Of a DNA stretch of 64,000 bases, positions 1 through 46,500 are shown in pieces. The translations under genes and the position numbers were made by a program. Position 1 is the stretch's first letter, and every line of letters starts with the position of its first letter. The notes beneath the pieces were generated by a model. It did no database searches. It was not told the origin of the DNA and was given only the letters and a program-made list of their open reading frames with translations. The stretch covers positions 1 through 64,000 of the IMG/VR virus record IMGVR_UViG_3300010354_000069; one strand, written 5' to 3'. The DNA comes from a virus.

Positions 1-1
1 C

Positions 2-853
2 ACTGCAAGCACATCACCAACAAATGCTTTGGTCGCACCCGCTTCTCTTCCAGCAGGTACGCAGACAAAAGCTACCGGCTTCTTTATGGCTGGTTCTGGC
101 GTGCTCAAGATGTTTTCTGGGTCTGCCGAGCGTATTCGAGTAGACTCTTCTGGTCGCGTAGGTATCGGTGAATCCGCCCCTTCGGCAAGACTGCATCTGT
201 CTGCAGGTACAACCACCGTTGCTCCGCTTAAGTTGAGCACCGGAACTAACCTTACAACCCCCGCAGCAGGATCTTTTGAATTTGATGGTAATAACCTGTA
301 CTTTACGCCGGCTAGTACACGTAAGAGTATTGCTTACCTAGACAGTAGTATTACTGGTACAGCAGCTAATATTAGTGGAACACTTGCCATTGCTAATGGC
401 GGAACAGGGCTAACTTCTGCTGGTTCGGCTAATAGTATCTTGGGTGTCGTATCCGGTGGATCCACCCTAGAGTACAAAACTCTTTTAGCTGGTACAGGTA
501 TCAGCATCACGAACAGCGGTTCTACAATCACCATCGAAAATACCGGATCAGGTACTGGAGGCGGGGGTGGTAGCAGCGGGGCTGTTACTTTTACTACTTA
601 CCAAGTAACGTTGACAAGCACCACTACTGCGCAGCGTATTGACGATGCTCAGAACCTGGCTAGCCGTATCTACGCAGTTGAAAACATCGGGTACTTTGGG
701 GTATATATTGGGTCAGATAGTAGCGTAACTGCCTCTACAGGTTTCAAGCTAGAACCTGGTGACATCTTCGAAACTGAACTCACGAGCACTGGTTCGATCT
801 GGGGTGTTACAGAGTTCGGTAACGTACGTCTATCTGTCATGCGAGGCCAGTAA
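2..853 (+). CDS. Tail fibre / virion adhesin, C-terminal part (5'-truncated at window edge)
   Basis: Frame is open from base 2. Contains the 'ERIRVDSSGRVGIG..PSARLHL' beta-repeat and the 'GTLAIANGGTG' motif typical of phage tail fibres; Gly/Thr/Ser-rich. Confidence 0.75.
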   Translation, partial: TASTSPTNALVAPASLPAGTQTKATGFFMAGSGVLKMFSGSAERIRVDSSGRVGIGESAPSARLHLSAGTTTVAPLKLSTGTNLTTPAAGSFEFDGNNLYFTPASTRKSIAYLDSSITGTAANISGTLAIANGGTGLTSAGSANSILGVVSGGSTLEYKTLLAGTGISITNSGSTITIENTGSGTGGGGGSSGAVTFTTYQVTLTSTTTAQRIDDAQNLASRIYAVENIGYFGVYIGSDSSVTASTGFKLEPGDIFETELTSTGSIWGVTEFGNVRLSVMRGQ

Positions 854-1008
854 TGAAGTACACTGTCACTACAACGGATCAGTACCACGAAGTGCTGTTT
901 GATCTAGACAGTTACAAGATTTTGCAGCAGTTTGCAAAAAGTCTTACTGCTGAACAGCTTGAAGAAGAAATTAAAGTCTTTCAGCAAAACTTGATGGGTA
1001 ATGAGTAA
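853..1008 (+). CDS. Small hypothetical protein (51 aa, MKYTVTTTDQ...)
   Basis: Not in the ORF track. TAATG stop/start overlaps at both ends (851-855 and 1006-1010) indicate translational coupling. Confidence 0.7.
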   Translation: MKYTVTTTDQYHEVLFDLDSYKILQQFAKSLTAEQLEEEIKVFQQNLMGNE

Positions 1009-1898
1009 TGCCTGTCGCTACAGCAAAAATTGTTTGGAACCAAAGTACGTCAAATAAAACGTACACTCGGTTTCTGCAGTTAATTCGAGACTTTCTTACT
1101 GGTAACGGTTGGACAGTACTAACAGACAAAACTGCAGACGTTGCTGCTTATTACTTTGTAGTTACGTATAACCGTAATACTGGCTATACAGGCGACAATC
1201 CAATTGTACAAATTGCTCTATCTACAACAGGTACACCTGCAAATCCAAGAATCATACAAACTGCCTATGAGTCTTGGAATACAGGTACGGCAACAGGTAC
1301 AAACGCTTCAGTAAATGCAGATAGATATGCCCCCGGGTTAAGCTTGACAGATAACTTCACATTTTATATTTCGTGTGACAGTACTTTCATTCTTACGTCT
1401 TCTTCAGTTCGTACAGCAGTATCTTCCGCATTTACCTATAAAGCGGCTTACGGGCTCGTATGTCTAGAACGCAGAGCAGGTGATGCTGACACAGGTACAT
1501 TCTACGGAATAGTAACAGATGAGGCGTGGACTAATACACAAAGAATATACGTACCAAAACTTTGGAATGGCTCTACAGGGGCTACAGCTTACTTCGAAAC
1601 AAGAACAAAACTAGGTAACCCTACTACTGCTACTTCAACTTACCTTACAGGTCTATATGACTTAGATGAATCGAATAAGCACGTTGTTTTTAATCTCTAC
1701 GCTAGTCGTGCTGCAAGTGGTAAACTTAAAGGAAAAGTTTATGGATTTGGAGTTACTACCTTCAATCGACGCTTAGGGCATTTTACTCTTTTACCGAGTA
1801 GCAGCTCACCCGAGTGGTTAGCAACAAAGAATATTAGTTACGACATTAGGTATACAGTAGCCATGCAAGTAGCTAATTCTATTAGTACGCTGAGTTAA
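1008..1898 (+). CDS. Putative virion structural protein, paralog 1 of 3
   Basis: Thr/Ser/Gly-rich. Shares QLIRDF..NGWT, VTYNRNTGYTGDNP, YESWNT and C.ER..GD.D motifs with 1910-2809 and 3014-3871. Confidence 0.6.
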   Translation: MPVATAKIVWNQSTSNKTYTRFLQLIRDFLTGNGWTVLTDKTADVAAYYFVVTYNRNTGYTGDNPIVQIALSTTGTPANPRIIQTAYESWNTGTATGTNASVNADRYAPGLSLTDNFTFYISCDSTFILTSSSVRTAVSSAFTYKAAYGLVCLERRAGDADTGTFYGIVTDEAWTNTQRIYVPKLWNGSTGATAYFETRTKLGNPTTATSTYLTGLYDLDESNKHVVFNLYASRAASGKLKGKVYGFGVTTFNRRLGHFTLLPSSSSPEWLATKNISYDIRYTVAMQVANSISTLS

Positions 1899-1909
1899 GG
1901 AAAAGTACT

Positions 1910-2809
1910 ATGCCAGTTGCTACCGCAAAAATATATTGGCCAACTTACGTTGCCAATCGAACAGTAACAAGACTGTTTCAGCTGATTAGAGATTTCGTTA
2001 CTCTAAACGGCTGGACTCTACTTACTGATGATTCAGGAGCAGCAACACCAGCTATTACCGTAACTTACAATAGAGACACTGGCTATACTGGTGACAACCC
2101 TATTGTTCAGCTAATTAGCGGAACGAGTGGGTCAAACTACACTATTACTGCGCGTGCTTATGAGTCTTGGAATACAGGCACTAAAACAGGAACAAACCTG
2201 GCTTATTCAAACGGTTTGGTTACATATAGCCTTACGTACGACAGTGAAATTTGGATATCCTGCGCGCCCGAATTTATACTTCTTTCTGCTTTGTACCAAG
2301 ATGGTGCAGGTAGCGGAAATTCAATGCTAGCCGGAGTAACTTGTATTGAGCGTTTGGTAGGAGACACAGATAGTGGAACCTTCTTTGGCGCTGTGAGCAG
2401 CGCACTTCAGTATGACAGTGCAGCCGGAACAATAGCAGGTCCTAAACTTTGGGTTCCTAAGCTATGGAACGGCTCTACAGGAATCAATGCTTACTACAAT
2501 GTGTACAGCGAACTTGGGCTCTCTACCGTCAATTCAAACTTTTTAAGTGGAGGTCTAGCGTTTCCTGATGAAAATGAGCGTCACGTCATCTTCAAGCTTG
2601 GTGCACACTTCCAGAGTTACGGCAGACTTAAAGGACAACTTTACGGCTTAGCTACTACAACGGGCGCAGGAGATTCAATTCCTGCAGAACTTCCTGTTGG
2701 TGTTTATCTACCAAACGCTACAAACCCTGAATGGCTCCTCGCTAGAACAAGCTACAACGCCTACTCATTTTTGATGCAAGTGTCGTCGCCAGTTACGAGT
2801 TTGACTTAA
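1910..2809 (+). CDS. Putative virion structural protein, paralog 2 of 3
   Basis: Same motifs as 1008-1898 and an identical N-terminus (MPVATAKI). AAGGA RBS. Confidence 0.6.
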   Translation: MPVATAKIYWPTYVANRTVTRLFQLIRDFVTLNGWTLLTDDSGAATPAITVTYNRDTGYTGDNPIVQLISGTSGSNYTITARAYESWNTGTKTGTNLAYSNGLVTYSLTYDSEIWISCAPEFILLSALYQDGAGSGNSMLAGVTCIERLVGDTDSGTFFGAVSSALQYDSAAGTIAGPKLWVPKLWNGSTGINAYYNVYSELGLSTVNSNFLSGGLAFPDENERHVIFKLGAHFQSYGRLKGQLYGLATTTGAGDSIPAELPVGVYLPNATNPEWLLARTSYNAYSFLMQVSSPVTSLT

Positions 2810-2819
2810 GGAGCAGTAC

Positions 2820-3014
2820 ATGCCATTTACTGCTGCACCTTCTAACAGCACCCACGCAAACTTTTCGGATAACTTCAACACCACAACTGTTCAGGTTCAG
2901 TCCGCCGGGTATGAAAAGTTGAACGATACTCAAACGAGTTTCAATACAAAAATCTACTATGGTCCAGGTATTGCCCGTACTCCCAAAGTCATAACTTTCA
3001 AGAATCAATCATAA
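2820..3014 (+). CDS. Small hypothetical protein (64 aa)
   Basis: AAGGAG RBS. TAATG overlap with the next gene. Confidence 0.6.
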   Translation: MPFTAAPSNSTHANFSDNFNTTTVQVQSAGYEKLNDTQTSFNTKIYYGPGIARTPKVITFKNQS

Positions 3015-3871
3015 TGGCTGTAAGTACTTTACTCGTACAGTGGACCGCTTCTACTACCACACGTACTGCTACAAAGCTTACGCAGGTCATTCGAGATTTC
3101 CTTCAAACAAACGGTTGGACAATCGTTGATGATATGTCTTCAACCGCTTGGAACTACGGCGGTCAAAATAGACCAAGTATCGTAGTTACCTACAATAGAA
3201 ATACTGGTTTTACTGGAGATAACCCTTTAATTCTAATCAGTACTTATGTGCAGTCTAGTGTAAATTACTTGTACTTCTACGCTATTGAATCTTGGAATAC
3301 AAGTACAAAAACCTTTACAGGGATGACTTCAAGTCCCTACGCTTTTACAGTTATTAGCTACACTTCAAATATGGACTTGCTAATTTCTTGTGACAGTACG
3401 TTCATTGTAGCTACTTGCAAAGTAGGTGGCGTCCGGCAGTCAAACCAGCTGTTTGGGGTTTGTTGCTACGAACGTTATAGCGGTGACCAAGATTTAGGGT
3501 CATTCTACGGTAGTGTTGTCTTTACTACAAGTGGAATAGGTATACCAAGAATCTGGCATAACACTACTGCCTTTGGAAGTAACTCTACTAGCTCTGCACA
3601 AATGAATATAGGAACTATTGTAGGTAACAACTGGTCAGCACTTAGCACAGTTGACGAAGGCGGAAATGATGTAATCTTCCCGGTCTATGTACACAACTAC
3701 GCATATGGTAGGCACAAGGGGCTTCTATATGGTATGAGAGTTACTACAAACAGTGCTACTGTTACAGATGGTACAATAACAGGAGCTGTAGACGGTAACG
3801 CTTGGTATATCGTGAAGTCCGGTACAGCAAGCGGTTGCATGCCTTATGCAACGCCTACTGTAGTAACTTAG
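3014..3871 (+). CDS. Putative virion structural protein, paralog 3 of 3
   Basis: QVIRDFLQTNGWT, VTYNRNTGFTGDNP, ESWNT, ISCDSTFI and CYERYSGDQD are shared with the two upstream paralogs. Confidence 0.6.
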   Translation: MAVSTLLVQWTASTTTRTATKLTQVIRDFLQTNGWTIVDDMSSTAWNYGGQNRPSIVVTYNRNTGFTGDNPLILISTYVQSSVNYLYFYAIESWNTSTKTFTGMTSSPYAFTVISYTSNMDLLISCDSTFIVATCKVGGVRQSNQLFGVCCYERYSGDQDLGSFYGSVVFTTSGIGIPRIWHNTTAFGSNSTSSAQMNIGTIVGNNWSALSTVDEGGNDVIFPVYVHNYAYGRHKGLLYGMRVTTNSATVTDGTITGAVDGNAWYIVKSGTASGCMPYATPTVVT

Positions 3872-3883
3872 GGTAAGTAACTC

Positions 3884-4234
3884 ATGGACTCTGAAAAAGA
3901 AACTCCTGAGACCTTCAACAAAAAACTTCTTCTGCTATTTGCAACGATCACGGCCGTCATCACAACTCTGCTCGCATCAATTGTTGTACTTCTTGAGTGG
4001 CATTGGAGCATTGCCTTGGGTATTGGGCTTCTGGTTGGTATAACAATGTCTCGAGCCCATAACTGGCTCATTGAAAAGCTTGCTTTCAAGTACAAGTTTG
4101 ACGTTGCTCCAAACCCACTTGAGCGCTTGTTCAAACCAGAACCAAAACCAAGAACAGACCTGATTGTCTATGTAGAGCCAGAGCCGGATAAGGACCCTTG
4201 GATCCATAAGGACAACCCTGAAGACTTCAAATAG
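3884..4234 (+). CDS. Small membrane protein (two predicted TM helices)
   Basis: Two adjacent hydrophobic stretches (LLLLFATITAVITTLLASIVVLL; WSIALGIGLLVGITM) followed by a charged tail. Confidence 0.6.
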   Translation: MDSEKETPETFNKKLLLLFATITAVITTLLASIVVLLEWHWSIALGIGLLVGITMSRAHNWLIEKLAFKYKFDVAPNPLERLFKPEPKPRTDLIVYVEPEPDKDPWIHKDNPEDFK

Positions 4235-4786: not shown

Positions 4787-5218
4787 ATGCACAATATCTT
4801 CATCCGCCTGCACGTGCAGGCTGACAGCGCAAAGTTTGACAAGGCAGCGCACCCAGGTGCAGTCTGTCTGGAAGCTCTACGCAGTCTGCTGAAGAGCATG
4901 CCCGGTGTAGCGGTTCCTGCAGCTTCTTGGGGTATTACCGAGCGTGATGCAGATTCGCAGGAAGTAAAAGAGCTGCGCCACACGGTACGCAAGCTTGAGG
5001 AGCGTGTGAAGGAGCTTACGCAGCTACTGACACCGCCCGCGCCTGTTGAAGAACCCCCCGCTATCGAAGAGCCCAACAATGAAACTGTTCTTGAAGAAGT
5101 CGTGGCTGAAGCTGAAGTTGTTGCTGACGCTGAGCAATTTGATGGAGCACCTGAACCAGATATTGCTGAATCCGAAGCGGGTGAAGCAAAGCAGCGTAAC
5201 CGCCGTCGAGTGCGATAA
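4787..5218 (+). CDS. Hypothetical protein (coiled coil + acidic tail)
   Basis: GGAG RBS. Follows dut with a 1-nt gap. Confidence 0.6.
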   Translation: MHNIFIRLHVQADSAKFDKAAHPGAVCLEALRSLLKSMPGVAVPAASWGITERDADSQEVKELRHTVRKLEERVKELTQLLTPPAPVEEPPAIEEPNNETVLEEVVAEAEVVADAEQFDGAPEPDIAESEAGEAKQRNRRRVR

Positions 5219-8785: not shown

Positions 8786-10048
8786 ATGACTGTGAAAGCA
8801 GTAGAACTAAAAAACCAAGCTGTCCTTACACTGCTTCGCCGGCAACCCTTCATGTTTCACCTGATCACTCAGCTACGCTATGAAGAGACTGACAGTGTAC
8901 CTACGGCTGCCGTCGTGTTTGACGGCCTGAATAACGAGAGCTGGTTGAAGGTAAACCCAGACTTTGTAGAAAAGTTGTCTGCTCTCGAGCTTGAGGGCTT
9001 GCTGGCCCATGAACTCTTGCACGTGATGCACGAGCACACCCACTCACCGCACGTCCGTGAATGGGCTTGGAACATTGCAACTGATCTTGCAGTAAACACG
9101 GTTTTGCTCAAGCAGGGTTACGTGTTGCCGAGCGGTGGGCTTACCCCGCAAGGTGTTGCAGACAAACTCGCAGAGGATTCGGGACACCCGGTGGAAACCC
9201 CGCCCGAGCTGATGTCGGCTTACTGGTACTATCGCTGGCTTCAAGAGAATGCCAAGACCAACGAAGATAGCAAGGATAGTTGCGGTGGCGGCAAGTCAGA
9301 AACAGACGATACGCGGGACAACCAAGAGCAGGGTAACAATCAGTCTGGATCTTCACTGCAAGACCAAGCTGACCCACACGGTCACTGGTCTGACAGTGAA
9401 GGACAGCAGTCGCCCGAAGCTCGGGAACTTACCAAGCGCATGGTTGCCCAGCATGTGCAAAAGGCTAGCGAGAGCACTGCAGGTCGTCTTCCCGGTTATC
9501 TGGATTCTTTGGTCAATGAACTTTTGCGGGTGTTGGAAGAACCGTCCATGCGGTGGAACCAAGCCCTCAAGAAGTTCGTGGGTTTTAGAGCTGGCGTAAG
9601 TCTGAAGGCTAGCTGTGCCCGTACAAACAAGTACGGACAGATTCCCAAGATCCTGTTCAAGCCGTCTACCAAGTTCATGGTGTTCATTGATGTATCGGGT
9701 TCAGTTGACGACCAGCTGGCAGCAAAGTTCTTCAGTGAACTGGAAGGCTTGGCAAAGCAAGGCAATGAATTTGACTTGGCACAGTTTTCGATAGATGTCG
9801 TACCAATGGGAAGGTTTACCAAAAAACCTTATTACTCTCGCTTCATGAAAGGCGGCACTGACTTCAGTGCGCCATTCAAATTCATGCTGAAGAACAGGTT
9901 GTATAACAAGTACGACGGTGTAATAGTACTTACGGACGGAGAAGCTCCATGGCCAATGCCGGACGAACTTCTGCTACCATCCCTGTGGGTACTGAGCGCA
10001 GAACAGACTACCCCTGCACACATCAACACTATCGTCATCAAGGACTGA
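8786..10048 (+). CDS. Metallopeptidase-VWA protein (DUF2201-like)
   Basis: HELLH zincin motif, WNIATDLAVN, VWA MIDAS DVSGS, GGTDF and LTDGE. Confidence 0.88.
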   Translation: MTVKAVELKNQAVLTLLRRQPFMFHLITQLRYEETDSVPTAAVVFDGLNNESWLKVNPDFVEKLSALELEGLLAHELLHVMHEHTHSPHVREWAWNIATDLAVNTVLLKQGYVLPSGGLTPQGVADKLAEDSGHPVETPPELMSAYWYYRWLQENAKTNEDSKDSCGGGKSETDDTRDNQEQGNNQSGSSLQDQADPHGHWSDSEGQQSPEARELTKRMVAQHVQKASESTAGRLPGYLDSLVNELLRVLEEPSMRWNQALKKFVGFRAGVSLKASCARTNKYGQIPKILFKPSTKFMVFIDVSGSVDDQLAAKFFSELEGLAKQGNEFDLAQFSIDVVPMGRFTKKPYYSRFMKGGTDFSAPFKFMLKNRLYNKYDGVIVLTDGEAPWPMPDELLLPSLWVLSAEQTTPAHINTIVIKD

Positions 10049-10059
10049 CAAATAACACC

Positions 10060-10323
10060 ATGCGGCGCTACACATTTGAATACGAAGTAACCACCGGTAT
10101 CGATGACAGTTTTTTGTCTGGCGGTACGGTAATTGTAGAAGCAACAAACCAAAACAACGCCGAGGTTCTTGGTCGCCGCAGAGTCCAAGAAACGGACAGG
10201 TATTGCGACTCGAGCATGGACCCTGTAATCACACTTACTCTGGAATCGGTAGAGGAAACGATAGATGTCTCAGCAGAGCCCGGCTCGAGTCTGCAAGCAA
10301 GCCAAGGAGTTGTATCCTACTGA
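10060..10323 (+). CDS. Hypothetical protein
   Basis: ATG 10060 (MRRYTFEYEV...). Fills the gap between the VWA and ATPase genes. Confidence 0.5.
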   Translation: MRRYTFEYEVTTGIDDSFLSGGTVIVEATNQNNAEVLGRRRVQETDRYCDSSMDPVITLTLESVEETIDVSAEPGSSLQASQGVVSY

Positions 10324-11434
10324 TACGCTCCTAAGGACGCTGCTTTACAGCAGAGCCTGCACCATAAAGAACCTGGATAATCCGGCAATCAACCCGGCCA
10401 GTATTGTAGTCAATGTCCAAGGTCACGCCGGCGTCGGCAAGACTGCCATGATTCAGCAGTTAGCGCGAGACCTCAGAATTGGTTACGAAATTCTAAATGT
10501 CGGCGGCGTCACTGACGTCGCCGAAATCTTTGGTATCAGCCACGTGAACCAGCTCACCGGGCGAACCGAAGCTACTCCGCCAGCTTGGTGGCCTCTGGAC
10601 GAGCACAGCGAAGGTATCATCAACATCGATGACCTGACTCGTGCGCTTCCCCACGTCATTCAAGCGCTGCAGCAGTTCATCAACACGAGAAAGTTTCACA
10701 ATCTGGTGCTGCCCAAGGGTTGGACCATTGCGGTCACCACCAACCCGGACGACGGCGACTACAACGTGACGTCGGTGGACAACGCCTACGAGACGCGACT
10801 GGTCACCCTCGTCTACAACAGACCAGAAGAAGTGTTTCTCGAGCAACTCGAGAAGCAGGGCGTAGACGACATGGTCGCCAACTTCTGGCAGGTGCACCGT
10901 GAGCAACTCCGCATGCCCAGGTTGGAGCAAAAAGCACCGAAGGCCAACGACCGTACGCGCATGATCTTCAACCACCTGTACCCGTATTTGGCTAACGACC
11001 AAGATGCGCTGATTGCTACGGGTTCTGCGCTATTTGGCTACGAGTGGACTCAGGTGTTTCTGAGCTTTCAGAAGAACGATGACCAGCCGTTGAACCCCGA
11101 CGAGATTCTGGAAATCTATGTCAATGACAGCAGCCTGAAGCAAACCACCGAAAGGTACTTTGCTCAGGGCCGAAACGATTTGCTCAAGGTAAGTACTGAA
11201 AGATTGGTCCACCGCATGCGACAGGTCGTTGCTCTTACCAGTAACAACTGGAAGAATATCTCTGCATTTCTGACAGATTTGCCACAGGATCTAGGATTTC
11301 ATATGTATATGTCTTTGGTTCAGACAGGACAGCCGTCAGCTGATTTGTTCAGAGCCAAGCTTATGGAATTCCCCGAACTTGCCACAAACTTTGTCAAACT
11401 TGCTGAAAGTATTCCAAAGGTAAGAAAGGAATAG
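10265..11434 (+). CDS. MoxR-type AAA+ ATPase
   Basis: Walker A GHAGVGKT, Walker B IINIDD, sensor VTTNP, D.A..TR arginine finger. Next to a VWA partner. Confidence 0.85.
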   Translation: MSQQSPARVCKQAKELYPTDTLLRTLLYSRACTIKNLDNPAINPASIVVNVQGHAGVGKTAMIQQLARDLRIGYEILNVGGVTDVAEIFGISHVNQLTGRTEATPPAWWPLDEHSEGIINIDDLTRALPHVIQALQQFINTRKFHNLVLPKGWTIAVTTNPDDGDYNVTSVDNAYETRLVTLVYNRPEEVFLEQLEKQGVDDMVANFWQVHREQLRMPRLEQKAPKANDRTRMIFNHLYPYLANDQDALIATGSALFGYEWTQVFLSFQKNDDQPLNPDEILEIYVNDSSLKQTTERYFAQGRNDLLKVSTERLVHRMRQVVALTSNNWKNISAFLTDLPQDLGFHMYMSLVQTGQPSADLFRAKLMEFPELATNFVKLAESIPKVRKE

Positions 11435-11666: not shown

Positions 11667-11839
11667 CTCTGTTCGAAGACCTTTGTGAGCAACCAGATCC
11701 AATAGGTGTTTTGGCACGGGCTTGCAGTACCCTTGAAGAGCTTTATGAGCACTTGGACATACTGCTTATCAACGAGCCCAATCATCCACACTACATCGAA
11801 CTGCTTATGCTCAAGACTGACATCGAGCGGACCTTGTAG
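11663..11839 (+). CDS. Small hypothetical protein (58 aa, MTLFEDLCEQ...)
   Basis: Not in the ORF track. ATGA overlap with the upstream stop; ends TAG 11837-39. Confidence 0.6.
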   Translation: MTLFEDLCEQPDPIGVLARACSTLEELYEHLDILLINEPNHPHYIELLMLKTDIERTL

Positions 11840-12103
11840 CGTCCTCGCGCGCACGCGCGCGGTCCAGCTATTGGTGAACTTCCCCCTAACTACTGCGTCC
11901 CCTCTCCCTCCTCTCCCCCAAAGCGGCGTTTCATAGGCAAGTAGCCATGCAGCGGCCAACCTTGGCGCACTTTACGTGCACGGAACAAGGGTAGAGGGGA
12001 CGCAGAGCCGGTGCGGCCGCACCGGGGAGGAGTTGGATTTCCAGCTATTGGAGCCACTTCCACTACTGCGTTCTCTGCGTCCCCACGCCTTAACGCAGCA
12101 GCA
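11840..12103 (-). ncRNA. Putative structured non-coding RNA (~260 nt) / candidate replication-origin transcript
   Basis: Lies downstream of the promoter at 12110-12137. 13-bp perfect inverted repeat (11893-11905/11993-12005), 18-bp palindrome 12008-12025, and stems with G-U pairs only on the minus strand. Confidence 0.5.
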
Positions 12104-12109
12104 TGCATG

Positions 12110-12137
12110 ACAATAGCATGCTCATTGCTCCTGTCAA
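12110..12137 (-). promoter_or_regulatory. Sigma70-type promoter P2
   Basis: Minus strand TTGACA(12137-32)-16 nt-TATTGT(12115-10) with extended TG. Embedded in a TGACA...TGTCA inverted repeat. Confidence 0.65.
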
Positions 12138-12140
12138 GTC

Positions 12141-12258
12141 AAAAAAAAAAGAAGCCGGAAGCTCAACCAATGTGGGGACACAGAGCTGGTAGTTATTAGA
12201 CCACCAGAGCGGGGAGCTTCCGACTTCTCTTGTTGGAACCTTGTGAGGGCGTCCAACA
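12141..12258 (-). ncRNA. Putative small RNA (~118 nt)
   Basis: Bounded by promoter P1 and a 15-bp stem followed by a ten-U tract. Has a 5' hairpin and an internal hairpin; G-U pairs favour the minus strand. No ORF. Confidence 0.65.
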
Positions 12259-12263
12259 ACTAA

Positions 12264-12292
12264 ATCCTACACAGTAGCCTAGAGTCTGTCAA
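12264..12292 (-). promoter_or_regulatory. Sigma70-type promoter P1
   Basis: Minus strand TTGACA(12292-87)-17 nt-TAGGAT(12269-64) with extended TG. Confidence 0.75.
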
Positions 12293-12363
12293 CGCGTCTC
12301 GGTCGGTCATGGTTGCAGGTGGTTGGGAATGTTGCCGCCGTTGCTTGAAAAGGAGTCCAGCTA

Positions 12364-12681
12364 GTGGGTGGTGAAGAGTTGGGTGAGGCGGTTGGCAAAG
12401 TGCTGGACCAACTGGCTTCCGTTCTGGCAGACTATCTGCATGTTGAAAGCAAGCTTCAGGTGCACGCCCTCACGTGGACACCGGAAGCAACGTCAATTTA
12501 CATTGACGATCCTCAGTTGGCCGGACACATCACACGTCGAGTCACTACCGAACTTGGTGACATTCAGGTAGTTGTGGACCACGCAACCCGCGGCCCCGTA
12601 TCAGTGGAACTTATCCAATGCCCAATATCGAATACACGCTCGTCAGCGATAACGACATTGAAGACGTTGTCCAGTACCTGA
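12364..12681 (+). CDS. Hypothetical protein
   Basis: AAGGAG RBS before GTG 12364. Confidence 0.55.
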   Translation: MGGEELGEAVGKVLDQLASVLADYLHVESKLQVHALTWTPEATSIYIDDPQLAGHITRRVTTELGDIQVVVDHATRGPVSVELIQCPISNTRSSAITTLKTLSST

Positions 12682-14642
12682 GCGGGGAATCGCTGCTGGC
12701 GCTGGATACGGAAACGTACAGAACGACCAAACCCTATCCCAGAGCCTACGACCTGAAGACGGAAAACCGCTTGTGGATTTCCGATCCTTTCATCAACAAC
12801 ATTCGGCTGGTACAGATTCGGTCACGTGACAGCGAAAGCTTCATCTTTGACCTGATGGAGCTTTCTGGCGCAAGCACTGAACGGCTTCAGTGGTTGCTGG
12901 GGCAAAAGCACATTACTTGGTTGGGGCACAACCTCAAATTCGATTGGCGCATGATTGCCGTCAACCTGGAAGTCGAACTTGAGAAGGTTTGGGACACCAT
13001 GCTGGCAGCGATCACCATCGGCTACGCAATTGGCGACGGTGCCATGTGGTCAAGAGGTGTTGGCCTCAAAGATGTCTGTCGCGACTTTCTTGACGTCAAA
13101 CTGGACAAGACGGAGCAGAACAGTAACTGGGGCGCCAAGGAACTGACAGCAAATCAGTACCAGTACGCAGCAAACGACTTGCTTTACCTGTTCAAGCTCT
13201 ATGACGTACTGATCAAGGCAATCGAAGAAGAGTATGACATGCTTGGTGGAGTGCAGTTGGAAATGGAGCTGCTTCCGGCAGTAGCAGCAATGGAAATTGC
13301 CGGAATCGATTTTGATCTTGATCTGTACTACCGAGTGCAGAAAGCTGCCAAAGCTTATATTCCCAAGCTGGAAGAAGAGCTTTGCAAGTTTATCGGATGG
13401 CCCATGATTGCAGTACCGCCTCTTGAGCGGATAAAGACTGGGCGTAACTGGAAACCAAACCCAAAAAGCTTTGACGGTGAAGCAAAGAGTCCTCTGGATT
13501 CAAACCCTTTCATGCTCAAAGCGTTTCGGGATAAAGGTGTGGAAGTCGAGAACTTGCAGGGAAAGCACTTGGAAGAGTTGTCGGACAAGTACCCAATCCT
13601 GAAAAAGTTCAGTGACTACAAGGATCTTACCAAGCAGCTTGGGATAGCCTACGATGCTTGGGTACACCCACTTACGGGCCGTATTCATCCCGAATTCAAC
13701 CAGTCAGGCGCCGCCACCGGTCGTTTCAGCTGCAATAACCCCAACTTGCAGCAGGTTCCAAAAACGGAAATCACGGACCCTCAGACGGGTGACAAACTCT
13801 GCTACCGCTACTGCTTCATTGCTCCTGATGGCCAAGAACTGGCTTCAGCCGACTACTCGGGACAAGAGCTACGCGTCATGGCAGTACTGTCCGGCGATCC
13901 CAACCTGATTCACATCCACAAGAACGAACCCGACTACGTCGAGGATCCAACGGGCAAGCTGGATGAATATGGCAAACCGGCCATGGTGAAGAACATGGGT
14001 GCAGATGTCCACGCAATGAGTTGCGAGCTGGTGTATGGTTCAGCAGGTATTACCAGATGGAATGCAAAGACTACGCCCTACCCGGGACTATCGGGCAAGA
14101 CGTACAGAGACGTCATCAAGACCGTTGTCTACGGGCTGGCCTACGGCAAGACTGCACCTGGTCTGTCAAAAGACATGGGTATCAGCATCGATGAAGCGGA
14201 AAACATCATCGAGTCCTTTTTCAGACCCTACCGTGTCCTTCACCAGTGGTTGGAAAAGGTCGGCAAAGCTGCCGACGATACGAGATTAAGCCGATACGGT
14301 ATACCAGAAGCTGGTATTACTCGTTGGCGAATGGTAAACTCGGACAGGCACGAAGACAAAGGTGCTTTGAATCGAGCCGGCAAGAACACCCCCATTCAAG
14401 GATGCAGCGCACTCATGATGAAGAAAGCTTTGTGCAGCCTGAGAACGGTTGTACGAGAAGCTGGTGGAACAGTATGCGCTACGATTCACGACGAAGTTCT
14501 CGTCAGATATCCTATCGAACTACGGGACCAAGTGATGGCAGCAATCGACAAGGGCATGACCGAAGGATCCAACGTATTCCTCCGAAATGTTGTCAACGAT
14601 AAGTACGGTGTCGGCTGCGCCAAACACTGGTCAAAGGATTAA
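12618..14642 (+). CDS. polA: DNA polymerase family A (3'-5' exonuclease + polymerase, no 5'-3' exonuclease)
   Basis: ExoI LDTET, ExoII HNLKFD, ExoIII YAAND, TGRFSC.NPNLQQ, motif A ADYSGQELR, motif B K...YGLAYG, motif C IHDE. Confidence 0.95.
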   Translation: MPNIEYTLVSDNDIEDVVQYLSGESLLALDTETYRTTKPYPRAYDLKTENRLWISDPFINNIRLVQIRSRDSESFIFDLMELSGASTERLQWLLGQKHITWLGHNLKFDWRMIAVNLEVELEKVWDTMLAAITIGYAIGDGAMWSRGVGLKDVCRDFLDVKLDKTEQNSNWGAKELTANQYQYAANDLLYLFKLYDVLIKAIEEEYDMLGGVQLEMELLPAVAAMEIAGIDFDLDLYYRVQKAAKAYIPKLEEELCKFIGWPMIAVPPLERIKTGRNWKPNPKSFDGEAKSPLDSNPFMLKAFRDKGVEVENLQGKHLEELSDKYPILKKFSDYKDLTKQLGIAYDAWVHPLTGRIHPEFNQSGAATGRFSCNNPNLQQVPKTEITDPQTGDKLCYRYCFIAPDGQELASADYSGQELRVMAVLSGDPNLIHIHKNEPDYVEDPTGKLDEYGKPAMVKNMGADVHAMSCELVYGSAGITRWNAKTTPYPGLSGKTYRDVIKTVVYGLAYGKTAPGLSKDMGISIDEAENIIESFFRPYRVLHQWLEKVGKAADDTRLSRYGIPEAGITRWRMVNSDRHEDKGALNRAGKNTPIQGCSALMMKKALCSLRTVVREAGGTVCATIHDEVLVRYPIELRDQVMAAIDKGMTEGSNVFLRNVVNDKYGVGCAKHWSKD

Positions 14643-21608: not shown

Positions 21609-21649
21609 CACTCCCATCATTCAGAAGGATGATGGGAGTGCTTTTCTTT
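21605..21649 (+). terminator. Rho-independent terminator overlapping a possible promoter
   Basis: Stem CACTCCCATCAT(TC)/(GG)ATGATGGGAGTG (21609-21640) followed by CTTTTCTTT. TTGACA at 21605-10. Confidence 0.7.
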
Positions 21650-21659
21650 GGAGGCTACC

Positions 21660-21854
21660 GTGGCACAGCTACAGACAATTCTGACCAACTGGAAGAATGC
21701 CGCAACCCCGGTTTCGATTGTTCTTGCAGGTAATGTCGGCGTTTATGGAACTATCACGGATGACGGCGTTGGGCAGGATAGCATCGTGGTAAATCACGCT
21801 AATGCAGATACCGTCATTCCAAAGGCAGCAATTGCTTACCTAGCTAAGCGCTGA
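21660..21854 (+). CDS. hfq: Hfq-like Sm/LSm RNA-binding protein
   Basis: GGAGG RBS + GTG. LQ..L..W....PVSIVL.G...GTI (Sm1) and VIPKAAIAYL (Sm2, resembling cyanobacterial IWKQAIAY). Confidence 0.7.
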   Translation: MAQLQTILTNWKNAATPVSIVLAGNVGVYGTITDDGVGQDSIVVNHANADTVIPKAAIAYLAKR

Positions 21855-22081
21855 TGTCTCAGGGCTTCAACTTTCAGCGGCGCAAGCGTACCGCCGTCAG
21901 TTGTAGAAAGTGCGGTGAACACGTATGGATTTTTATCACAGACTCGGAACTGTATAGAGACCGGTTCAGGCAGTGCGCCACCTGTGGAAAGATCTATCGA
22001 ATGGACATGACGCCGTTAGACTTGAACTATGCTTGGCGGGACGGCATACCAATGCCGTTTGAAGTGAGGGAAGACCAGTGA
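21854..22081 (+). CDS. Zn-ribbon hypothetical protein
   Basis: CRKCG...CATCG. Confidence 0.6.
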   Translation: MSQGFNFQRRKRTAVSCRKCGEHVWIFITDSELYRDRFRQCATCGKIYRMDMTPLDLNYAWRDGIPMPFEVREDQ

Positions 22082-22410
22082 CTGTAGTAACCAATGAACT
22101 GATGGCTGCCTATGCAAATGAGCTGGTCATCGACCTTGAGCGTATTTCGCGCTACAGGTTTGCTGCCTATTTGGTTTCGCCCCTGCGCACTACAGTTGCA
22201 GCTCACTTCGTTCGTCTTTATCAGCAAGAAAAGATCGAGTTCGAGCAAGCGCTCAACTACGTCGACATCCTTGAAGGCGAAACATCCTCTATTTCCATTC
22301 AACTGCGTCTGCCCAACCGCGCCGCAGTTACTAGCATCATTGCAAGCGCACTGATCAAGAGCGGATTCCGCCAAGCTGAAAGCGGCGACACGCTTGTGCT
22401 CGTTCTATGA
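22078..22410 (+). CDS. Hypothetical protein
   Basis: GTGA overlap and GAGG RBS. Confidence 0.6.
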   Translation: MTVVTNELMAAYANELVIDLERISRYRFAAYLVSPLRTTVAAHFVRLYQQEKIEFEQALNYVDILEGETSSISIQLRLPNRAAVTSIIASALIKSGFRQAESGDTLVLVL

Positions 22411-22523
22411 AGATTGACGAGGACCACGTTGAAGTAAGTATTACTGAAGAAGTAGTACTCGTTCTATTTGGTCTTTTACTTGCAAGTACTCTTGTACTAT
22501 ACTTGACAGTATATGGGGCTTGA
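22407..22523 (+). CDS. 38-aa single-pass membrane peptide
   Basis: Not in the ORF track. ATGA overlap; MKIDEDHVEVSITEE-VVLVLFGLLLASTLVLYLTVYGA. Confidence 0.5.
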   Translation: MKIDEDHVEVSITEEVVLVLFGLLLASTLVLYLTVYGA

Positions 22524-40064: not shown

Positions 40065-40556
40065 ATGCAGTTTTACGTCAGCGCTTTAGGACCTATAGAC
40101 ACAGGCCGCCCGCTTCACGCCGACGCCGGCAAAACCTTCAACCACGTAGGCATTCCTATCTGGTTTACTAGGGGTAGTTTGCACCGTGCTGTACACGTTC
40201 TAAATGGACCCTACCACGAACCTACTGGACTTTTCGTGGTGCAACCTAACGAAGTGCTGGTGTACTTTGAGGTAAAGCAGCCCCCAGCAGGTTCTTTGCA
40301 AGAGCAGACCATGGGACTGCGCCCGGTTACCTACGCAATTCTTAGTGTCGACCGCAACTTCGTGCATAGCAACAGTTTGCTGTATCAATCAGTAGATCCT
40401 GATGCAGACTTTGAAAAAGACGACGATATCGCCGTCTGGTTTGGAATGACCTTTCCGGCAACTATAGTAGGTAGATTCAGAAAGCCAACGGATACTTTTC
40501 AGCCTCCTAAAGAAACTCGTGGCCACATGTTGAAGGACTCCAACCTCTACAACTAG
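40065..40556 (+). CDS. Hypothetical protein
   Basis: AAGGA RBS. Last plus-strand gene, convergent with the giant ORF. Confidence 0.55.
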   Translation: MQFYVSALGPIDTGRPLHADAGKTFNHVGIPIWFTRGSLHRAVHVLNGPYHEPTGLFVVQPNEVLVYFEVKQPPAGSLQEQTMGLRPVTYAILSVDRNFVHSNSLLYQSVDPDADFEKDDDIAVWFGMTFPATIVGRFRKPTDTFQPPKETRGHMLKDSNLYN

Positions 40557-43500
40557 TTGGCTCGCTTTCGAGCAGCACTAGGAATATCTCTACTACCGCT
40601 GCGACCCTGTCTGTGATAGTCACGGTCCAGCGTGTCATCCTTGCCCTTCTTGCCAGCATGCTCTTGATGGATGACCACCTTCTTGCCCTGTGGGTCAACC
40701 TCTACCTTAGAAGTACGGCGCTGAGAGTGGTCTTTAGTGCTACCCGTCGGCACATCCTTTGCCCCGCTCTTGACACCACCGTGATTAGCCTTGGTATCGA
40801 CAACAACAGTTGCATTCTTTGACTTGGCGGGGGCTTCTTTACCATAGAACACGTTTTGAATGAACTCATCAACGTTTTCAATAACGTCATCGAGCACGTT
40901 ACGTTCATACTTGTCGGATACCACCGCTTCGACTTCGATTGAACCGCTTGAAGAAACGGTACCAGGTAGCGCTTGTTTGCTTGTGCTTGAAACACGTGCA
41001 AGCTCTTTAGTGCTACGAACGCTTAGTTCAGCAGCGGATTTTCCAACACGATACTTGGCGTCAATATGAGCATCAACAGATTTTACAAGGTGCTCGTTAA
41101 TTTTTCCGTAAGCCCAAATATTTGCAAGAACAATACCAATACCTGCAAAGGTTCCTGCGATAGCTCCAGGAAGAGCACCAACACCCCCAGCTAGTGTACC
41201 GGCGGCAGCGCCTGTCAAAGCCGTCTTTACAACGAAACCAGCAGCGGCACTAGCCAAGCCAAGAATGCCTATAGTGCTAAGACCGGCCACACCGTGCCCC
41301 AAAGCACGCTCTCTAGCAACTCTGTCAGTACCCGCCTCCCTGTATTCAACAAAGGTCTTGGATGACTCTACGACCACCATCAAAGGCAACGCAGCTTTGC
41401 TAGCTACTGCGGCAAGTTTCGGTGCCCACGTTGTAGCACCAAATCGCTTTGTAACAAGAGGAACCATGCGTCCGTAGCCTTCAAGTGCTGCTTGTACAGC
41501 AAACAATCCAGTGCTTGCCTTAAAGAAGACTTCCTGCTCAAAAGGCATTTCGTACCCTTGTTTATGCAGCTTTGCCTTTTGGTCTTCAAAATCCATCCAA
41601 CTTTTTACAGACATGGCAAGCATGAATAGAGGATTGCCAAGCTGTTGGCTGAACTCATAACTCTTCATGATCGATGTGTTGGCTAGCCGTTGTTGGTAGA
41701 TATCTCTGCGGATTCGAGCCTCTGCCTGTTCTTGGCGCGCCATAGGACGCTCTCTGGAAGTCTTGTCCAACCTTGAACGAATCTCTTCCTTGCGCTCCAC
41801 TGTACGTTGAATTCGCTCTTCAGCCTCCTGCAACCGCTCAAGAGGTTTGCCGGCAGTACCCAAGCGTGCCCAAATATCTTGCTTCAATTGTTTTTGACGG
41901 TTTATTTCTTCCTCACGCTCAATCAGGGTTTGCAAAGGACGCTCACCCCGTGTTGCCTCCGTACGGCTACGAACTTCTTCGCGTCTAGCTTCTGCTACCG
42001 ACTCGACTGCTCTGCGCTGCTTACGGGCGGCAATGAGCTCGCGCTGCCTATTTGCCAGAGTTTCTTGGTCAAGGCTATTCAAGCTGCGAGGCGTGGGGTT
42101 CTTGCGGAAGTCCCTGACAGCCCTACCCAGAACTAAGCGGCTTTCTTCATCCGCGGGTACGAAAGTACGCTTGGTGTAGCTAAAAGCTTGTGGAGTCTTT
42201 ACTGGCTCGTCCGTCACGCTACGCTGAGCGCTCACAACGGGATTGATGCTTGAAGCAGCAATGTCTTTTGATAGACGTGCTACTACTGCAACAAGCGATC
42301 TACCAGCTTTCAAGTATCTGTGTACGGCTTTTTCAACCAACTCGTCTGGATTTACAACGATTAGCTGGTCTACGTTACGCTCAACAGCACGCCAGCCTCT
42401 ACCCAGTAACATAGAATAGCCGGCATAACCAAGACTGGCAATTGTGCGTGCAAACAATCTGTCAGTAAAGAGGTAAATGTCCCTAGCACCTGTAGATGCA
42501 GCCCTGTAAGCAGCTTCTCTAGCTACGATGTATGTCCTACCGTCACGTTCAATAGTGGTATTGCCAAGGTGCTTAAGAGCGTCACCGTTATCAAACATGC
42601 TAGGCTTGTTATACTTGTCGACAAGCAATTCAGCCGCTATGCCCGCAAATAGCTCTCTAATACCTGTGGACATGAGCTCATGAATAGTAAAAGAAGTAAT
42701 ACCTGGTTTTTCTGATCTACGTCGTACTTCCTCAAGAGTACGCTCTGCGTTAGAGCGCAGTTCTAGGTAGGTCTGCTCTGCAAGTTTTCCGTTAGGGTCT
42801 TGAACACCCATTTCCCTGTACATGGACTTGATGATTTCTCGCCACTCCTGCTCATAAACTTCAGGAGCTGCCCTGAAATCCATGATTCTTGCGCCTGGCT
42901 TAAAACCGAAAGTCTGAACGTAGTGTGCGCTGCTGTAGTGCCCCCAACCGCTAGGTTTAATTCCTCGAACACCAGAGTAATCTGTGGCATCGTTTCTGGA
43001 AGGTGTCACGTAGAACCCGGCCCCTTCGGCCCAAGTGCCAGATACGTCCAACTCTGGAATTCCGTAAGGACGATAGTCCTGACCGTGGTAGTAAGCCCTG
43101 CTTGTAAGCCTGTCGGATATAGCTTGCTTTTCCGCAGTAAAATCAACTACACCAGAGCGGGTTGTGTGTGCATCGCGCGCAAGTGTTGAAGTTTCTGGCG
43201 CCGCTGTACGAAGCTCCATGTCAAGTAGTTCGTGCGGTAGCAGATTTGAAGCACTTTCAGTCTTTGGCAAAGACCTCCACTCGTATTTGGCCCTCTGTTC
43301 AGCCGCTCGAGTATCTGCCCGCATTTTCAGCATCAGCCTTAGCATGCGAGCTTCTTTTTGAGCAAACCTGATGAGACTGCTGATAGCTCCAGGTTGACTG
43401 CTTGCTCTTTGCAACCGGTCTCTGTACGTCTGGTAAGCAAGACGGCCAAGAACCGGTGCGGTTGCAAGTAGACTAGTGGCCAGAGTAGCAAAGTGCTCGG

Positions 43501-46500
43501 GCGTAATCAGAGTGCCAAAACCACTGGAAGCTTCTGCGGGCATTGTAGCGGCTGCAACCAAACCCAAGCCAGTAAAAGCAATGGACATTAGTCGTCCGGA
43601 GCGCCCGCCAAGAATGCCTTTACGCTCTGCCGCTCGTTTAGCCAAACGGCTTACACGGTCTGCGGTACTAGCAGCAACGTGTGAGTAAGGCTCTATATTC
43701 CTTGAATACTCGGCGGGTATTACTTCTGGTAGGCTGGTCTCAGAAATATTGAGAACCTTCGCTATCTTAGTTTTATAGATGTTTATAAGCTCTACAGCTT
43801 TGTCCATCTCAACAGAATCTTGTTTAGGAGCAAATTCTTGAACTAACCGCTTGGTATAAAAGTCAAGTCGTAAATCCATATCTCTGGTAATGTTACCAGC
43901 TGCATGCTTGCGTAGAATAGCATTTTTAATAAGGTCAACGCGCCTGTCTGTAAAGTATATCTGTTCGTCAGTAAGTCCAGCTGCATCCCTGAGGAAGTTG
44001 TACATAGTACGCTGTTCTGGATAAGCAGAGAAAACACTAGTAGTAGAGTTTACGTTAATACGCAACCTGCGGATAAGCTCTGGCATTACATTTATTGCTC
44101 TAGTTTCTACAGCAGCTTCTTCAAGGGCTAGTTCAGGCGCCGTAGCGTAATGCCCTTTTATATCGTAATCAAAGCCGAATCTAGCTAGAGCGCGCCTACG
44201 CGGGCTGTACTCGTGATGCACTTCGTGAGAAAGGATATGAAGAGTCGTTAACAAGCGTTCCAAAGACTTTTCTCTATATTCAAATGAAGCTACGCCAAGT
44301 TTATTTCTACTCTGACGTGCGATATCTAGTAGATACGGAGTATACTTATTTCTAACATTGATGTAAGCCATCATACCGCGCGGAGTGTGCATACCATCCC
44401 AGCTAAAAGGCATATTGGTCACTCCAATATCATTCAGCAGAATAACAGGAAGGGGTAGGATTCCTCTTCTTTGTTCTCTAGGTAAAGTACTTCTAACAGC
44501 CTTTGCAGTTTCGTACAAAGCAAATTGCATAGCAGTAAGTTGTTTTGCAGTATCAACAAAGTGTCTTAGGCTTGCAACCGATCTTGCACTTATAGTTTTC
44601 AAAAAATCTATTGTTTGTCTAGGTTTCAACACAAGGCTCGCAGTAAGCGCAGTAGCGGTAGCCCCAAAAACACCAGCTGCAGCAAATTTCAGGTAAGGTA
44701 CTAAAGTGTTAATCAGACTAGGGTAATGCGTAGTAATTTTACTAAGGTCGGGCTCCACCACAGTTTCAATCCTGAAGTGGGTTGCCGCTTCTGCAGGCAT
44801 TCCAGCGGCTAGTGCAAGGCCTACACCAAGTAACCCTAGTGCCAAAGGCTTGGCACCACGCTTGAGGCTTTGACGAGCCTTCTCAAGAAGCTTTGGTTGT
44901 AGAGCTTTGAGTGTGCTGCGAACGTAAGTGAAACCTCTTGCTACACTGACAGAAGATTTGTCTATGGTAGTAGTAAACAAATGGTGCGGTTTACGAGCAG
45001 AAGCAATAATGTCAGAAGAAGCTCTGTACCTGAGTAGCTGTACTGTGTATTCACTTAAATTTGCTAAGTTCAAAGCCCCCAACCGCTTTATACGTTTACC
45101 TGGAACAACAGCATAAACAGTTGTTTCTCTCGCTTCTTTGGAGTCCATTAATACAAGCTGACCATTTTCGTTGAAAATGGTATTACGTACTCCCGCGTAT
45201 CCTTGGCTTACAATACTGTCTCTAAGAGCTGTATGAACTGCAACCTCAGAGTTGAAGTTTGGTGGTAGACCTTCAGCAGCAGTAAAACGAGATGTCATAA
45301 ACTCTACTGCGCTCTTATAAAAGTATTCTACATTGTGTTTGTTGTCGGGAGTATCAAGAGCGTTAAGCAGACGCAGGAGCTCCGCATTGAACTTACTGCT
45401 AGTTTTTTCACTATCATTTACGTGAAGCAGCATAGTCTCAAAAGTGTGCTGCAACATTGTGCGTACTTCAGTCTTGTACACTTCAGCAGGCTGAGCAAAG
45501 TCTATAAACTGTGCAGTAGGGTTTAGCCTTACTTTTTGAACGATACCAAACTGCTTTTTGGCCTTTGTTACAAGGGCTCGTACAGTCTTGCCTGCTGAGT
45601 TTACAGTAAGACCCGCGTAGTCAAGGGCTTGGCCAACCGTTTCAGCCATGTAGTAACCACGGCCGCCCCACCAAGAGCCGTGTAAAGAGGCTTCAGGAAT
45701 ACCAGAAGGTGCATGAGTTTGACCGTGGTAGTACGTACGGTTGGTAATCTGCCTTGAGATATCTTTCTTCAAAGTGGTGAAATCCAAAGCGGTGCGCGTA
45801 GGCTCGGCCTCGGAAGCGGGAACAACACTGGACAGAGGTTGATTCTTATTGTTACCCCCAAAAAGCTTCTTGACTCCTTCCCAGCCAAGAATTCCGGCTG
45901 CAGAGAAACCAAGCTGACTCATCAGCAAAGCGTTGTCTGCGAGCGATGTGACGTGATGCCCAAACGGTAGCGTAGCTGCTTCAGCGGGCATTCCAGCGGC
46001 TAGAGCCAGACCTGTTCCTACCAGCAGGCCGAAGATACCGGAAGTGCGCTGCCCCCGCTCCCGCCTAGCTTTCTCTAGCTCAGCATCAATAACCGTCACC
46101 ATAGAACTATCGTTTAAAATTTCGAAAGAAGGTAAGTCACGTCGTGCAATAGAGCTCAAAGACCTGTGTAGCCTATCAAGAGCTTTTAAACTTTGTTTAT
46201 AGCTGCCTACAGGACGTCTAATGCTAAATCTGCTGCTATAGGAAGAAGGTACAAACACGTTTACAGCGTAGTTATTGATAACCTTTCTTATTCTTGTAGC
46301 TTGGCTCCGGTTAAGGCGAAACTTCTCTGCAATTTTTTCACTTAGTAGTTTTACACGATCCTCTTCGACATACAAAGTATCGCTTGTAATATCTGTAAGT
46401 GAAAGCAAGGCCCTTGTAAACATTCTTTGAAACTTATAGGTAGCGACTAAAGGAGCGGTACTTACAGTATGTCCAGTTAGCCTTCCTACAAATTCCCTAA

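Follow-up and report, generated by a model that had tools for sequence, protein, structure and literature searches.

We analysed a window comprising the first 64 kb (64,000 nucleotides; nt) of a 72,243-base IMG/VR virus record, IMGVR_UViG_3300010354_000069 (CheckV completeness, 35%), and focused on a putative small RNA (sRNA) gene on its minus strand, at positions 12141–12292. On the plus strand, coding sequence stops at 11839 and resumes at 12364, leaving a 520-nt spacer, and the sRNA gene is the first of two tandem minus-strand non-coding units within it. A first-pass annotation, made from the letters of the window, had described a self-contained phage sRNA gene divergent from the polymerase operon. 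This description held up in our comparison, in that the promoter, the terminator and the architecture of the predicted RNA are kept in a metagenomic relative (L031) and in two contig variants, as detailed below.

Read on the minus strand, the unit begins with a sigma-70-like promoter, P1 (12264–12292), which consists of the −35 hexamer TTGACA (12292–12287), a 17-nt spacer and the −10 hexamer TAGGAT (12269–12264). P1 agrees with the consensus at 10 of 12 positions, and no sigma-70-like site between positions 5000 and 22000 scores higher, although P1 shares the top score. The predicted transcript, sRNA1 (12141–12257), would be about 110–117 nt long, with a start near G12257, placed by its distance from the −10 hexamer, and an end within a U-run. 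Its 5′-terminal hairpin (12230–12259) has a stem of 8 base pairs (bp), in which 12259–12252 pairs with 12237–12230, and a 3-bp inner stem. A closing stem, which is also the terminator stem (12149–12229), follows; it has 15 pairs (12228–12214 with 12164–12150), and the minimum-energy fold extends it to 16 (12229–12214 with 12164–12149). In this fold, the closing stem encloses a three-way junction that includes an 8-bp inner hairpin with the loop CUAAUA (12186–12207; 12207–12200 paired with 12193–12186) and a C-rich segment, CUCUGUGUCCCCAC (12172–12185), hereafter referred to as box A. The terminator U-run is encoded by ten T (12141–12150), the first of which doubles as the last base of the closing stem. 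The promoter, the 5′ hairpin, the closing stem, the CUAAUA hairpin and the ten U had all been listed in the first-pass annotation, and we found each of them in place.

The minimum-energy fold of the sRNA has a predicted energy of −52.2 kcal/mol, compared with −29.6 ± 3.4 kcal/mol for shuffled sequences (z, −6.6; 0 of 200 shuffles as good). The complementary plus strand folds less well (−47.7 kcal/mol; z, −5.1). As had also been noticed before, the wobble pairs are strand-specific: the two non-Watson-Crick pairs, U12223–G12155 and G12202–U12191, form G-U wobbles on the minus strand, whereas the plus strand would have A-C at both places. The pattern TTGACA-N16–18-TAnnnT occurs at two sites in the 72,243-base record, where about 1.5 ± 1.2 would be expected, and both of them lie here, on the same strand and 155 nt apart. 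The sRNA terminator is the sole run of at least eight T on either strand of the whole record.

The earlier statement that the unit contains no open reading frame is correct for conserved frames and needs amendment otherwise: a mechanical 41-codon TTG frame (12259–12134) overlaps the sRNA, and it is not conserved, because insertions and deletions in L031 shift the shared core to a different frame. Consistent with the first reading of the family as unrecognised, no Rfam 15 family (4227 models) was found at gathering thresholds in the 64-kb window. When E-values of up to 10 were allowed, the segment 11400–12700 gave five matches of 15–20 bits against gathering thresholds of 35–96 bits, none of which covers 12141–12262. 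ARAGORN predicted no tRNA or tmRNA gene in the window. A covariance model built from the window and L031 identified a single copy of the sRNA in the record, with no tandem copies.

Conservation of the predicted RNA

To place the locus among its relatives, we used the family-A DNA polymerase (PolA) encoded next to it on the plus strand. The PolA alignment returned 29 viral and 80 metagenome loci, among which only L031 and L002 are close. L031 is a 5.3-kb metagenome contig with 95% amino-acid identity in PolA and is the sole close relative with sufficient flanking sequence; L002 shares 53% identity. Over the pol gene, the window and L031 are 84% identical in nucleotide sequence, with 267 of the 674 third codon positions (about 40%) differing. 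In addition, contigs of four freshwater sequencing runs were placed on 11830–12400. The variants X2 and X3/X4 (a 41-kb contig) cover the sRNA, and contig X5 stops short of it. Changes in the contig variants were read position by position.

The P1 hexamers are identical in L031 and flank a spacer that is unrelated in sequence and 18 nt in length. The T-run of L031 also has ten T, and an intrinsic terminator with a long 3′ U tail (ten T after a stem of 15–19 bp) is present in both sequences. The closing stem contains one C-G to G-C swap, retains the U-G pair and carries matching UUU/AAA insertions on its two arms in L031, which make it 19 bp long there versus 16 bp in the window. In the inner hairpin, two U-A pairs are swapped to C-G and one G-U pair to A-U, with the loop and its closing pairs identical. 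Two motifs are unchanged between the window and L031: an 11-nt segment of the inner hairpin, GUCUAAUAACU (12201–12191), and the core of box A, UGUCCCCA (12180–12173). The 5′ hairpin of L031 differs in sequence, but a hairpin (5 + 3 bp; loop GCAA) again occupies the predicted 5′ terminus. The fold architecture of the window is shared by L031 (z, −6.8). RNAalifold, applied to the two sequences, gave 25 pairs, 5 of which are changed on both sides and none of which is broken. In a trimmed structure of 22 pairs, three pairs have changes in both partners and three in one partner only; all of its 44 cells pair, versus 39–66% when the partner strand is slid by 1–3 columns.

In X2, X3 and X4, the closing stem, the CUAAUA hairpin, UGUCCCCA and the promoter hexamers are all unchanged, and the promoter changes are confined to the spacers (in P1, at 12272, 12279 and 12281). 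X3/X4 have six substitutions in the sRNA and a T-run that is one base shorter. Three of these substitutions, at 12233, 12252 and 12250, affect the 5′ hairpin and convert its pairs into U-G, G-U and A-U, respectively, so that all three pairs are kept; the two G-U pairs are workable on the minus strand only. X2 has three substitutions in the sRNA, one of which preserves a pair as G-U, and a 12-nt insertion inside the terminator T-run (at 12148), with T-runs on both sides of it. The insertion resembles a duplication of the T-run with its flanking bases.

The stems proposed in the first-pass annotation are kept in L031 and in the contig variants, with compensatory changes. This comparison showed that pairing in the predicted minus-strand RNA is under selection. 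The selection appears to act on the RNA itself, because an invariant loop and an invariant C-rich motif are combined with compensatory evolution of the stems. In our judgement, the locus is probably a real, expressed sRNA gene.

The predicted sRNA constitutes a new, narrowly distributed family of phage-encoded sRNA. The complete 205-kb sequence of L002 gave no BLAST match better than an E-value of 0.09 and no match to the covariance model. A DNA search of 50,697 phage records with the segment 11800–12700 returned no match, an exact 20-mer scan of viral contigs had zero matches, and a search of viral contigs with PolA as the single query found none. Scans with motif patterns yielded three viral loci, which we rejected as AT-rich coding sequence, and 20 loci among 185,579 species genomes, mostly of Poribacteria, which were rejected as none of them fits the RNA model. 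The covariance model recognised no copy among the pattern-scan loci.

A second non-coding unit and its boxes

The terminator U-run of the sRNA ends at 12141, and only 3 nt past it the −35 hexamer of another minus-strand promoter starts at 12137, such that a sigma-70-like promoter is joined to a terminator stem-loop. This promoter, P2 (12110–12137), reads TTGACA, 16 nt and TGnTATTGT; it matches 10 of the 12 consensus positions and has a TG extension. L031 keeps it as TTGACA-16-TGnTATGTT. The second RNA, predicted to run for about 260 nt from about 12103 towards about 11840, is strongly structured (fold z, −5.4). At its 5′ end lies the hairpin H1 (12062–12102), which has a stem of 12102–12092 paired with 12072–12062 and carries a G-rich box, box B, at its tip. 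Compared with L031, the 11-bp stem of H1 shows two compensatory changes and also retains two G-U pairs; one more compensatory change is in its 4-bp inner stem. A change in X2, at 12099, turns a G-U pair of H1 into A-U. The rest of the second RNA (11840–12061) contains the repeat R1, a GC hairpin, box C, box D, the repeat R2 and a GC palindrome. R1 (12039–12062) and R2 (within 11840–11908) have the form TCCAGCTATTGG...ACTTCC and carry a CCA-N5-TGG partial dyad.

Box B, GUGGGGAC (12086–12079), is the exact complement of the invariant GUCCCCAC of box A in the sRNA. The 8-mer GTCCCCAC has only two occurrences in the 72-kb record, one in box A and the other on the opposite strand at 12079–12086. 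Complementarity between box A and the segment 12073–12086 covers 14 nt in the window; in L031 it covers 13 nt. According to a rough estimate of our own, about 0.03 stretches of 14 consecutive pairs would be expected by chance between RNAs of such sizes. Support for a partnership between boxes A and B is moderate: the match is longer than expected by chance, falls on the invariant core and is located at a hairpin tip, but it is incompletely retained in the X variants and shows no net binding in the nested co-fold described below.

Box C (12007–11996) has the same sense as box A, and box D (11908–11893) has the same sense as box B. The motif GGGGAC(G/A)CAG is present in four copies of alternating orientation within 11893–12185, where A and C, as well as B and D, are 178 nt apart. 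The layout suggests that a unit of about 178 bp was duplicated in tandem long ago. Between boxes C and D, the P2 −10 region recurs in degenerate form. Boxes B and C can form a 12-bp helix (12086–12073 with 12007–11996) that is kept in all four variants. At 12003/12077, the window has G-C, the variants X2, X3 and X4 have C-G and L031 has U-G, and the pair 12004/12076 changes from U-A to C-G in L031; single changes give G-U pairs that exist on the minus strand only. The change at 12077 is unmatched in box D, and a C:D helix gains a mismatch in the X variants.

Within 11840–11908, which includes the GC palindrome, R2 and box D, all of the 64 aligned bases are identical to those of L031, and R1 together with box B is 92% identical. 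No other part of the locus is as strongly constrained.

A 72-codon ATG frame (12108–11890, minus strand), whose ATG lies 1 nt past the P2 −10 hexamer, was rejected as a gene. It is truncated after 29 codons in L031, shows no codon bias (7, 8 and 10 changes at the three codon positions) and lacks one base of its ATG, at 12106, in X2, X3 and X4. A toxin partner and a leader peptide are both absent from the locus, because the neighbouring minus-strand frames are not conserved. The possibility raised at the outset that the sRNA is an antitoxin was not upheld: there is neither an adjacent conserved toxin frame nor a set of tandem RNA copies, as regards both type I and type III systems. Elsewhere among viral sequences, two loci matching the R repeat and eight loci matching the H1 motif were rejected as coding; the H1 motif specifies 17 bases, and its number of matches is about that expected by chance.

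Proposed function and rival explanations

The explanation that we favour, with a probability of roughly 45%, is that the locus is an independently transcribed sRNA gene whose product would act as a stable base-pairing regulator. We favour it because invariant unpaired motifs on a variable, compensated scaffold resemble seed regions. Host RNA polymerase of the sigma-70 type would start at P1 near G12257, the hairpin at the extreme 5′ end would protect the sRNA, and the stem of 15–19 bp followed by 9–10 U would act as an intrinsic terminator, yielding a stable RNA of about 115 nt. The junction closed by the terminator stem would display the apical loop CUAAUA and the C-rich UGUCCCCA, both unpaired and invariant, which we take as the working parts of an antisense-type regulator. 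Its most concrete candidate partner would be the G-rich tip of H1 in the second RNA launched from P2. Alternatively, G-rich, Shine-Dalgarno-like sites in host mRNAs or unsequenced phage mRNAs could be targeted. Taken separately, action by base pairing has in our view a little less than an even chance, and the identification of the neighbouring second RNA as the pairing partner is rather unlikely.

A more elaborate scheme, which we regard as decidedly unlikely, would combine the sRNA and the second RNA into a two-RNA switch heading the replication module of a giant phage. In such a switch, the exposed CCCC of box A would compete with the internal box C for the GGGG tip of box B, and boxes A–D, arranged in two 178-nt units, could pair as A:B, B:C or C:D. 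Re-pairing would refold the second RNA around the invariant 64-nt element, and early gene expression or a replication step would be altered as a result.

Several observations weigh against the favoured explanation. The sRNA is predicted from sequence and comparison alone, and the comparison consists of two full sequences and two contig variants. A shuffle control of the two-row alignment was not significant, with 72 of 500 shuffles reaching the observed values. The X2 change at 12258 produces a C-A mismatch, located at the open end of the 5′ hairpin and possibly upstream of the transcription start, and the X2 change at 12182 breaks a predicted pair in a weak 4-bp UGUG/CACA hairpin, which we dropped from the structure for that reason. 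With regard to the partner, the change at 12077 is matched at 12003 in box C and unmatched at 12181 in box A, and the A:B complementarity in the X variants shrinks to a 9-nt core plus 3–4 pairs. Nested co-folding of the sRNA with H1, a procedure that cannot model loop-loop contacts, gave a net binding energy of 0.0 kcal/mol for the window and −0.6 kcal/mol for L031, no better than with shuffled partners. In a sliding duplex scan of 14,440 windows of the record, with energies dominated by long-loop artefacts, the window containing box B came in ninth place. Of those ranked above it, six come from the plus strand of the same locus, and a plus-strand site at 11991–12040 outscores box B. Elsewhere in the available 72 kb, we found no extended target. 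Finally, UGUCCCCA could be conserved as a DNA site, because GGGGAC(G/A)CAG occurs four times in alternating orientation. Two further candidates had been considered and were discarded: a 13-nt match of the sRNA to 12676–12688, in the overlap of orf105 and pol, is not retained in L031, and a boxA-like CGCUCU preceding the inner hairpin, as a nut-type site, is absent from L031.

The position of the unit, directly upstream of the replication genes and opposite to them as in lambda pO/oop, suggests another, unlikely explanation, namely that the locus produces a cis-antisense RNA or transcriptional interference that throttles or times the replication operon. An upstream plus-strand operon of the AAA ATPase, orf73 and orf58 would read through the 520-nt spacer into orf105 and PolA, P1 and P2 would fire head-on, and their RNAs would be perfectly antisense to the leader of the read-through transcript. 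Such read-through is plausible in that a plus-strand GC hairpin (11843–11862) has no T-run after it and no sigma-70-like plus-strand promoter was seen between 11840 and 12363; however, the phage may use promoters of an unrecognised kind. The sRNA, moreover, overlaps no coding sequence, and interference by itself fails to explain the invariant loop, the C-rich motif and the compensatory evolution of the stems. The same compensatory changes, in the sRNA and H1 stems, together with the strand-specific wobble pairs, are not predicted if the locus is instead a control region at the DNA level, such as a replication origin or an operator cluster, with the short RNA as a by-product. A phage protein would then bind the four GGGGAC(G/A)CAG boxes and the R repeats, and P1 and P2 would provide transcriptional activation. 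The alternating orientation and 178-nt periodicity of the boxes, the partial dyad of R1 and R2 and the location at the head of a module encoding PolA, clamp, clamp loader, primase and helicases fit this idea, and so does the 64-nt block that is identical in L031 although 40% of the third positions in pol differ. However, the locus has no AT-rich unwinding element and no origin-type skew signal, and the R repeats number only two or three, widely separated; we consider a DNA-level role quite improbable. Of a role in replication control, which the first-pass annotation had also suggested, we can say that it is compatible with the position only.

Short invariant motifs on a rigid scaffold would equally suit a protein-binding decoy or sponge RNA, which could target a nuclease, an RNA chaperone or a sensor of host defence, or could mimic a CRISPR repeat. 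An Hfq-dependent regulator and a CRISPR decoy had both been suggested in the first-pass annotation. In a decoy, the loop and the C-rich motif would serve as contacts for protein instead of as seeds for pairing. The predicted 3′ U tail is long, as in RNAs bound by Hfq, and an intrinsic terminator with such a tail is a feature of Hfq-dependent trans-acting sRNAs; the lack of an extended RNA target in the available 72 kb is in line with a decoy. The gene is present in a single copy without repeat-array organisation, however, and this explanation is less probable still. That the locus is non-functional, a chance promoter-like site beside a terminator-like palindrome, strikes us as very improbable. 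It draws on the predicted status of the sRNA and on the number of promoter-like matches in the record, two being about the chance number (1.5 ± 1.2). Chance would have to account, however, for promoter hexamers conserved across a scrambled spacer, for compensated stem changes, for motifs invariant in four variants, and for fold z scores of −6.6 in the window and −6.8 in L031.

Among known systems, the antisense immunity RNAs of P4 (CI RNA; seqA/seqC) and of P1 and P7 (c4 RNA) target complementary boxes close by. They arise by processing of the very transcript that they control, and what they regulate are protein genes located downstream in temperate elements. The predicted sRNA resembles them in having an exposed box complementary to repeated boxes in a neighbouring transcript of the same strand, with box A facing boxes B and D. 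It differs from them in having its own promoter and terminator and in that the neighbouring transcript has no conserved frame. By position, lambda pO/oop is the closest functional analogue. Lambda oop RNA is 77 nt long and overlaps cII. As judged at the sequence level, it shares with the sRNA a small size, a sigma-70 promoter and an intrinsic terminator of its own, and a location immediately upstream of the replication genes, against which it is transcribed. Unlike the sRNA (12141–12262), which lies wholly in a non-coding spacer, oop is antisense to the end of cII, and the two have no similarity in sequence or structure; the sRNA also differs from oop by the three-way junction inside its terminator stem and by the second non-coding unit that follows. 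In lambda, convergent pO activity modulates pR transcription and replication (PMC3985674).

A promoter-terminator junction comparable to that between the U-run and the P2 −35 hexamer, 3 nt away, is known from the PeSL cassettes of T4-type phages, in which an efficient stem-loop terminator directly adjoins a strong sigma-70-like promoter (PMC2839356). PeSL cassettes are multi-copy, border small protein genes of hyperplastic regions and promote recombination, whereas the present locus is single (two promoter sites and one long T-run in 72 kb) and encloses a non-coding RNA. Stand-alone sRNAs of lytic and giant phages include those reported for the Pseudomonas phages PAK_P3 and phiKZ and the non-coding RNA genes of cyanophage S-CREM1 (PMC4933390, PMC8244752, PMC9964418). 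Like the sRNA, they are phage-encoded, non-coding and intergenic, and their functions are mostly unknown. They were detected by RNA-seq, unlike the sRNA, which is a prediction from sequence and comparison and shows no homology, as judged from Rfam and from the 50,697 phage records searched.

Few of the known phage-encoded sRNAs are characterised, and uncultured freshwater giant phages have contributed hardly any. The locus offers a comparatively validated example with a promoter, a predicted protective 5′ hairpin, a junction scaffold and a terminator, in which two invariant motifs can be mutated and a candidate partner RNA is adjacent. Should the two-RNA circuit be true, it would represent a novel type of RNA-RNA control in phages, with a replication module controlled by non-coding parts alone; should it be false, the sRNA would represent an orphan family of narrow distribution, mainly a new candidate for Rfam. 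Because the locus holds the only pair of a sigma-70-consensus promoter and a terminator in 72 kb, it hints that the sRNA unit is one of few read directly by the host polymerase. Transcription of the remaining genome may depend on other kinds of signal.

Genomic setting

The plus-strand genes around the sRNA locus form a module for DNA replication and nucleotide metabolism. They encode a DUF2201 metallopeptidase/VWA protein (8786–10048), an AAA_5 ATPase (10265–11434) and PolA, a family-A DNA polymerase with a 3′–5′ exonuclease (12618–14642). Other members of the module are a sliding clamp, UDG, an SNF2 helicase, a clamp loader, a DnaG-type primase, a UvrD helicase and ribonucleotide reductase. 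The plus-strand frames flanking the sRNA are coding, as indicated by the third-position bias of their changes relative to L031 (3/2/25 over the three codon positions in orf73, 15/6/30 in orf58 and 7/2/23 in orf105).

The source of the window is an uncultured freshwater giant-phage lineage, because the isolated phages nearest by PolA, those of Microcoleus and Pseudanabaena, share only 27% identity and the closest complete relative, L002, is a 205,180-base contig with terminal repeats. Further relatives are marked by PolA sequences (P0001–P0012) with 48–91% identity. The 23 sequencing runs that contain parts of the locus (X1 excluded as the possible source) are all labelled as aquatic metagenomes, mostly of freshwater or lake water, and mostly contain small shares of it. 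No RNA data set is among the 24 sequencing runs listed for the locus.

In the vicinity of the sRNA, orf105 (12364–12681) has no Pfam or PHROG match. The 64-nt overlap between orf105 and the start of PolA (within 12600–12720) is 96% identical to L031, versus 84% for the whole pol gene. A region at 21609–22512, considered as a second non-coding locus, was rejected, as it reads as small coding frames. The GC content is about 44% at positions 1–4000 and about 51–52% across the remaining window. On the minus strand, positions 40553–58153 are occupied by a single open frame of 5866 codons.

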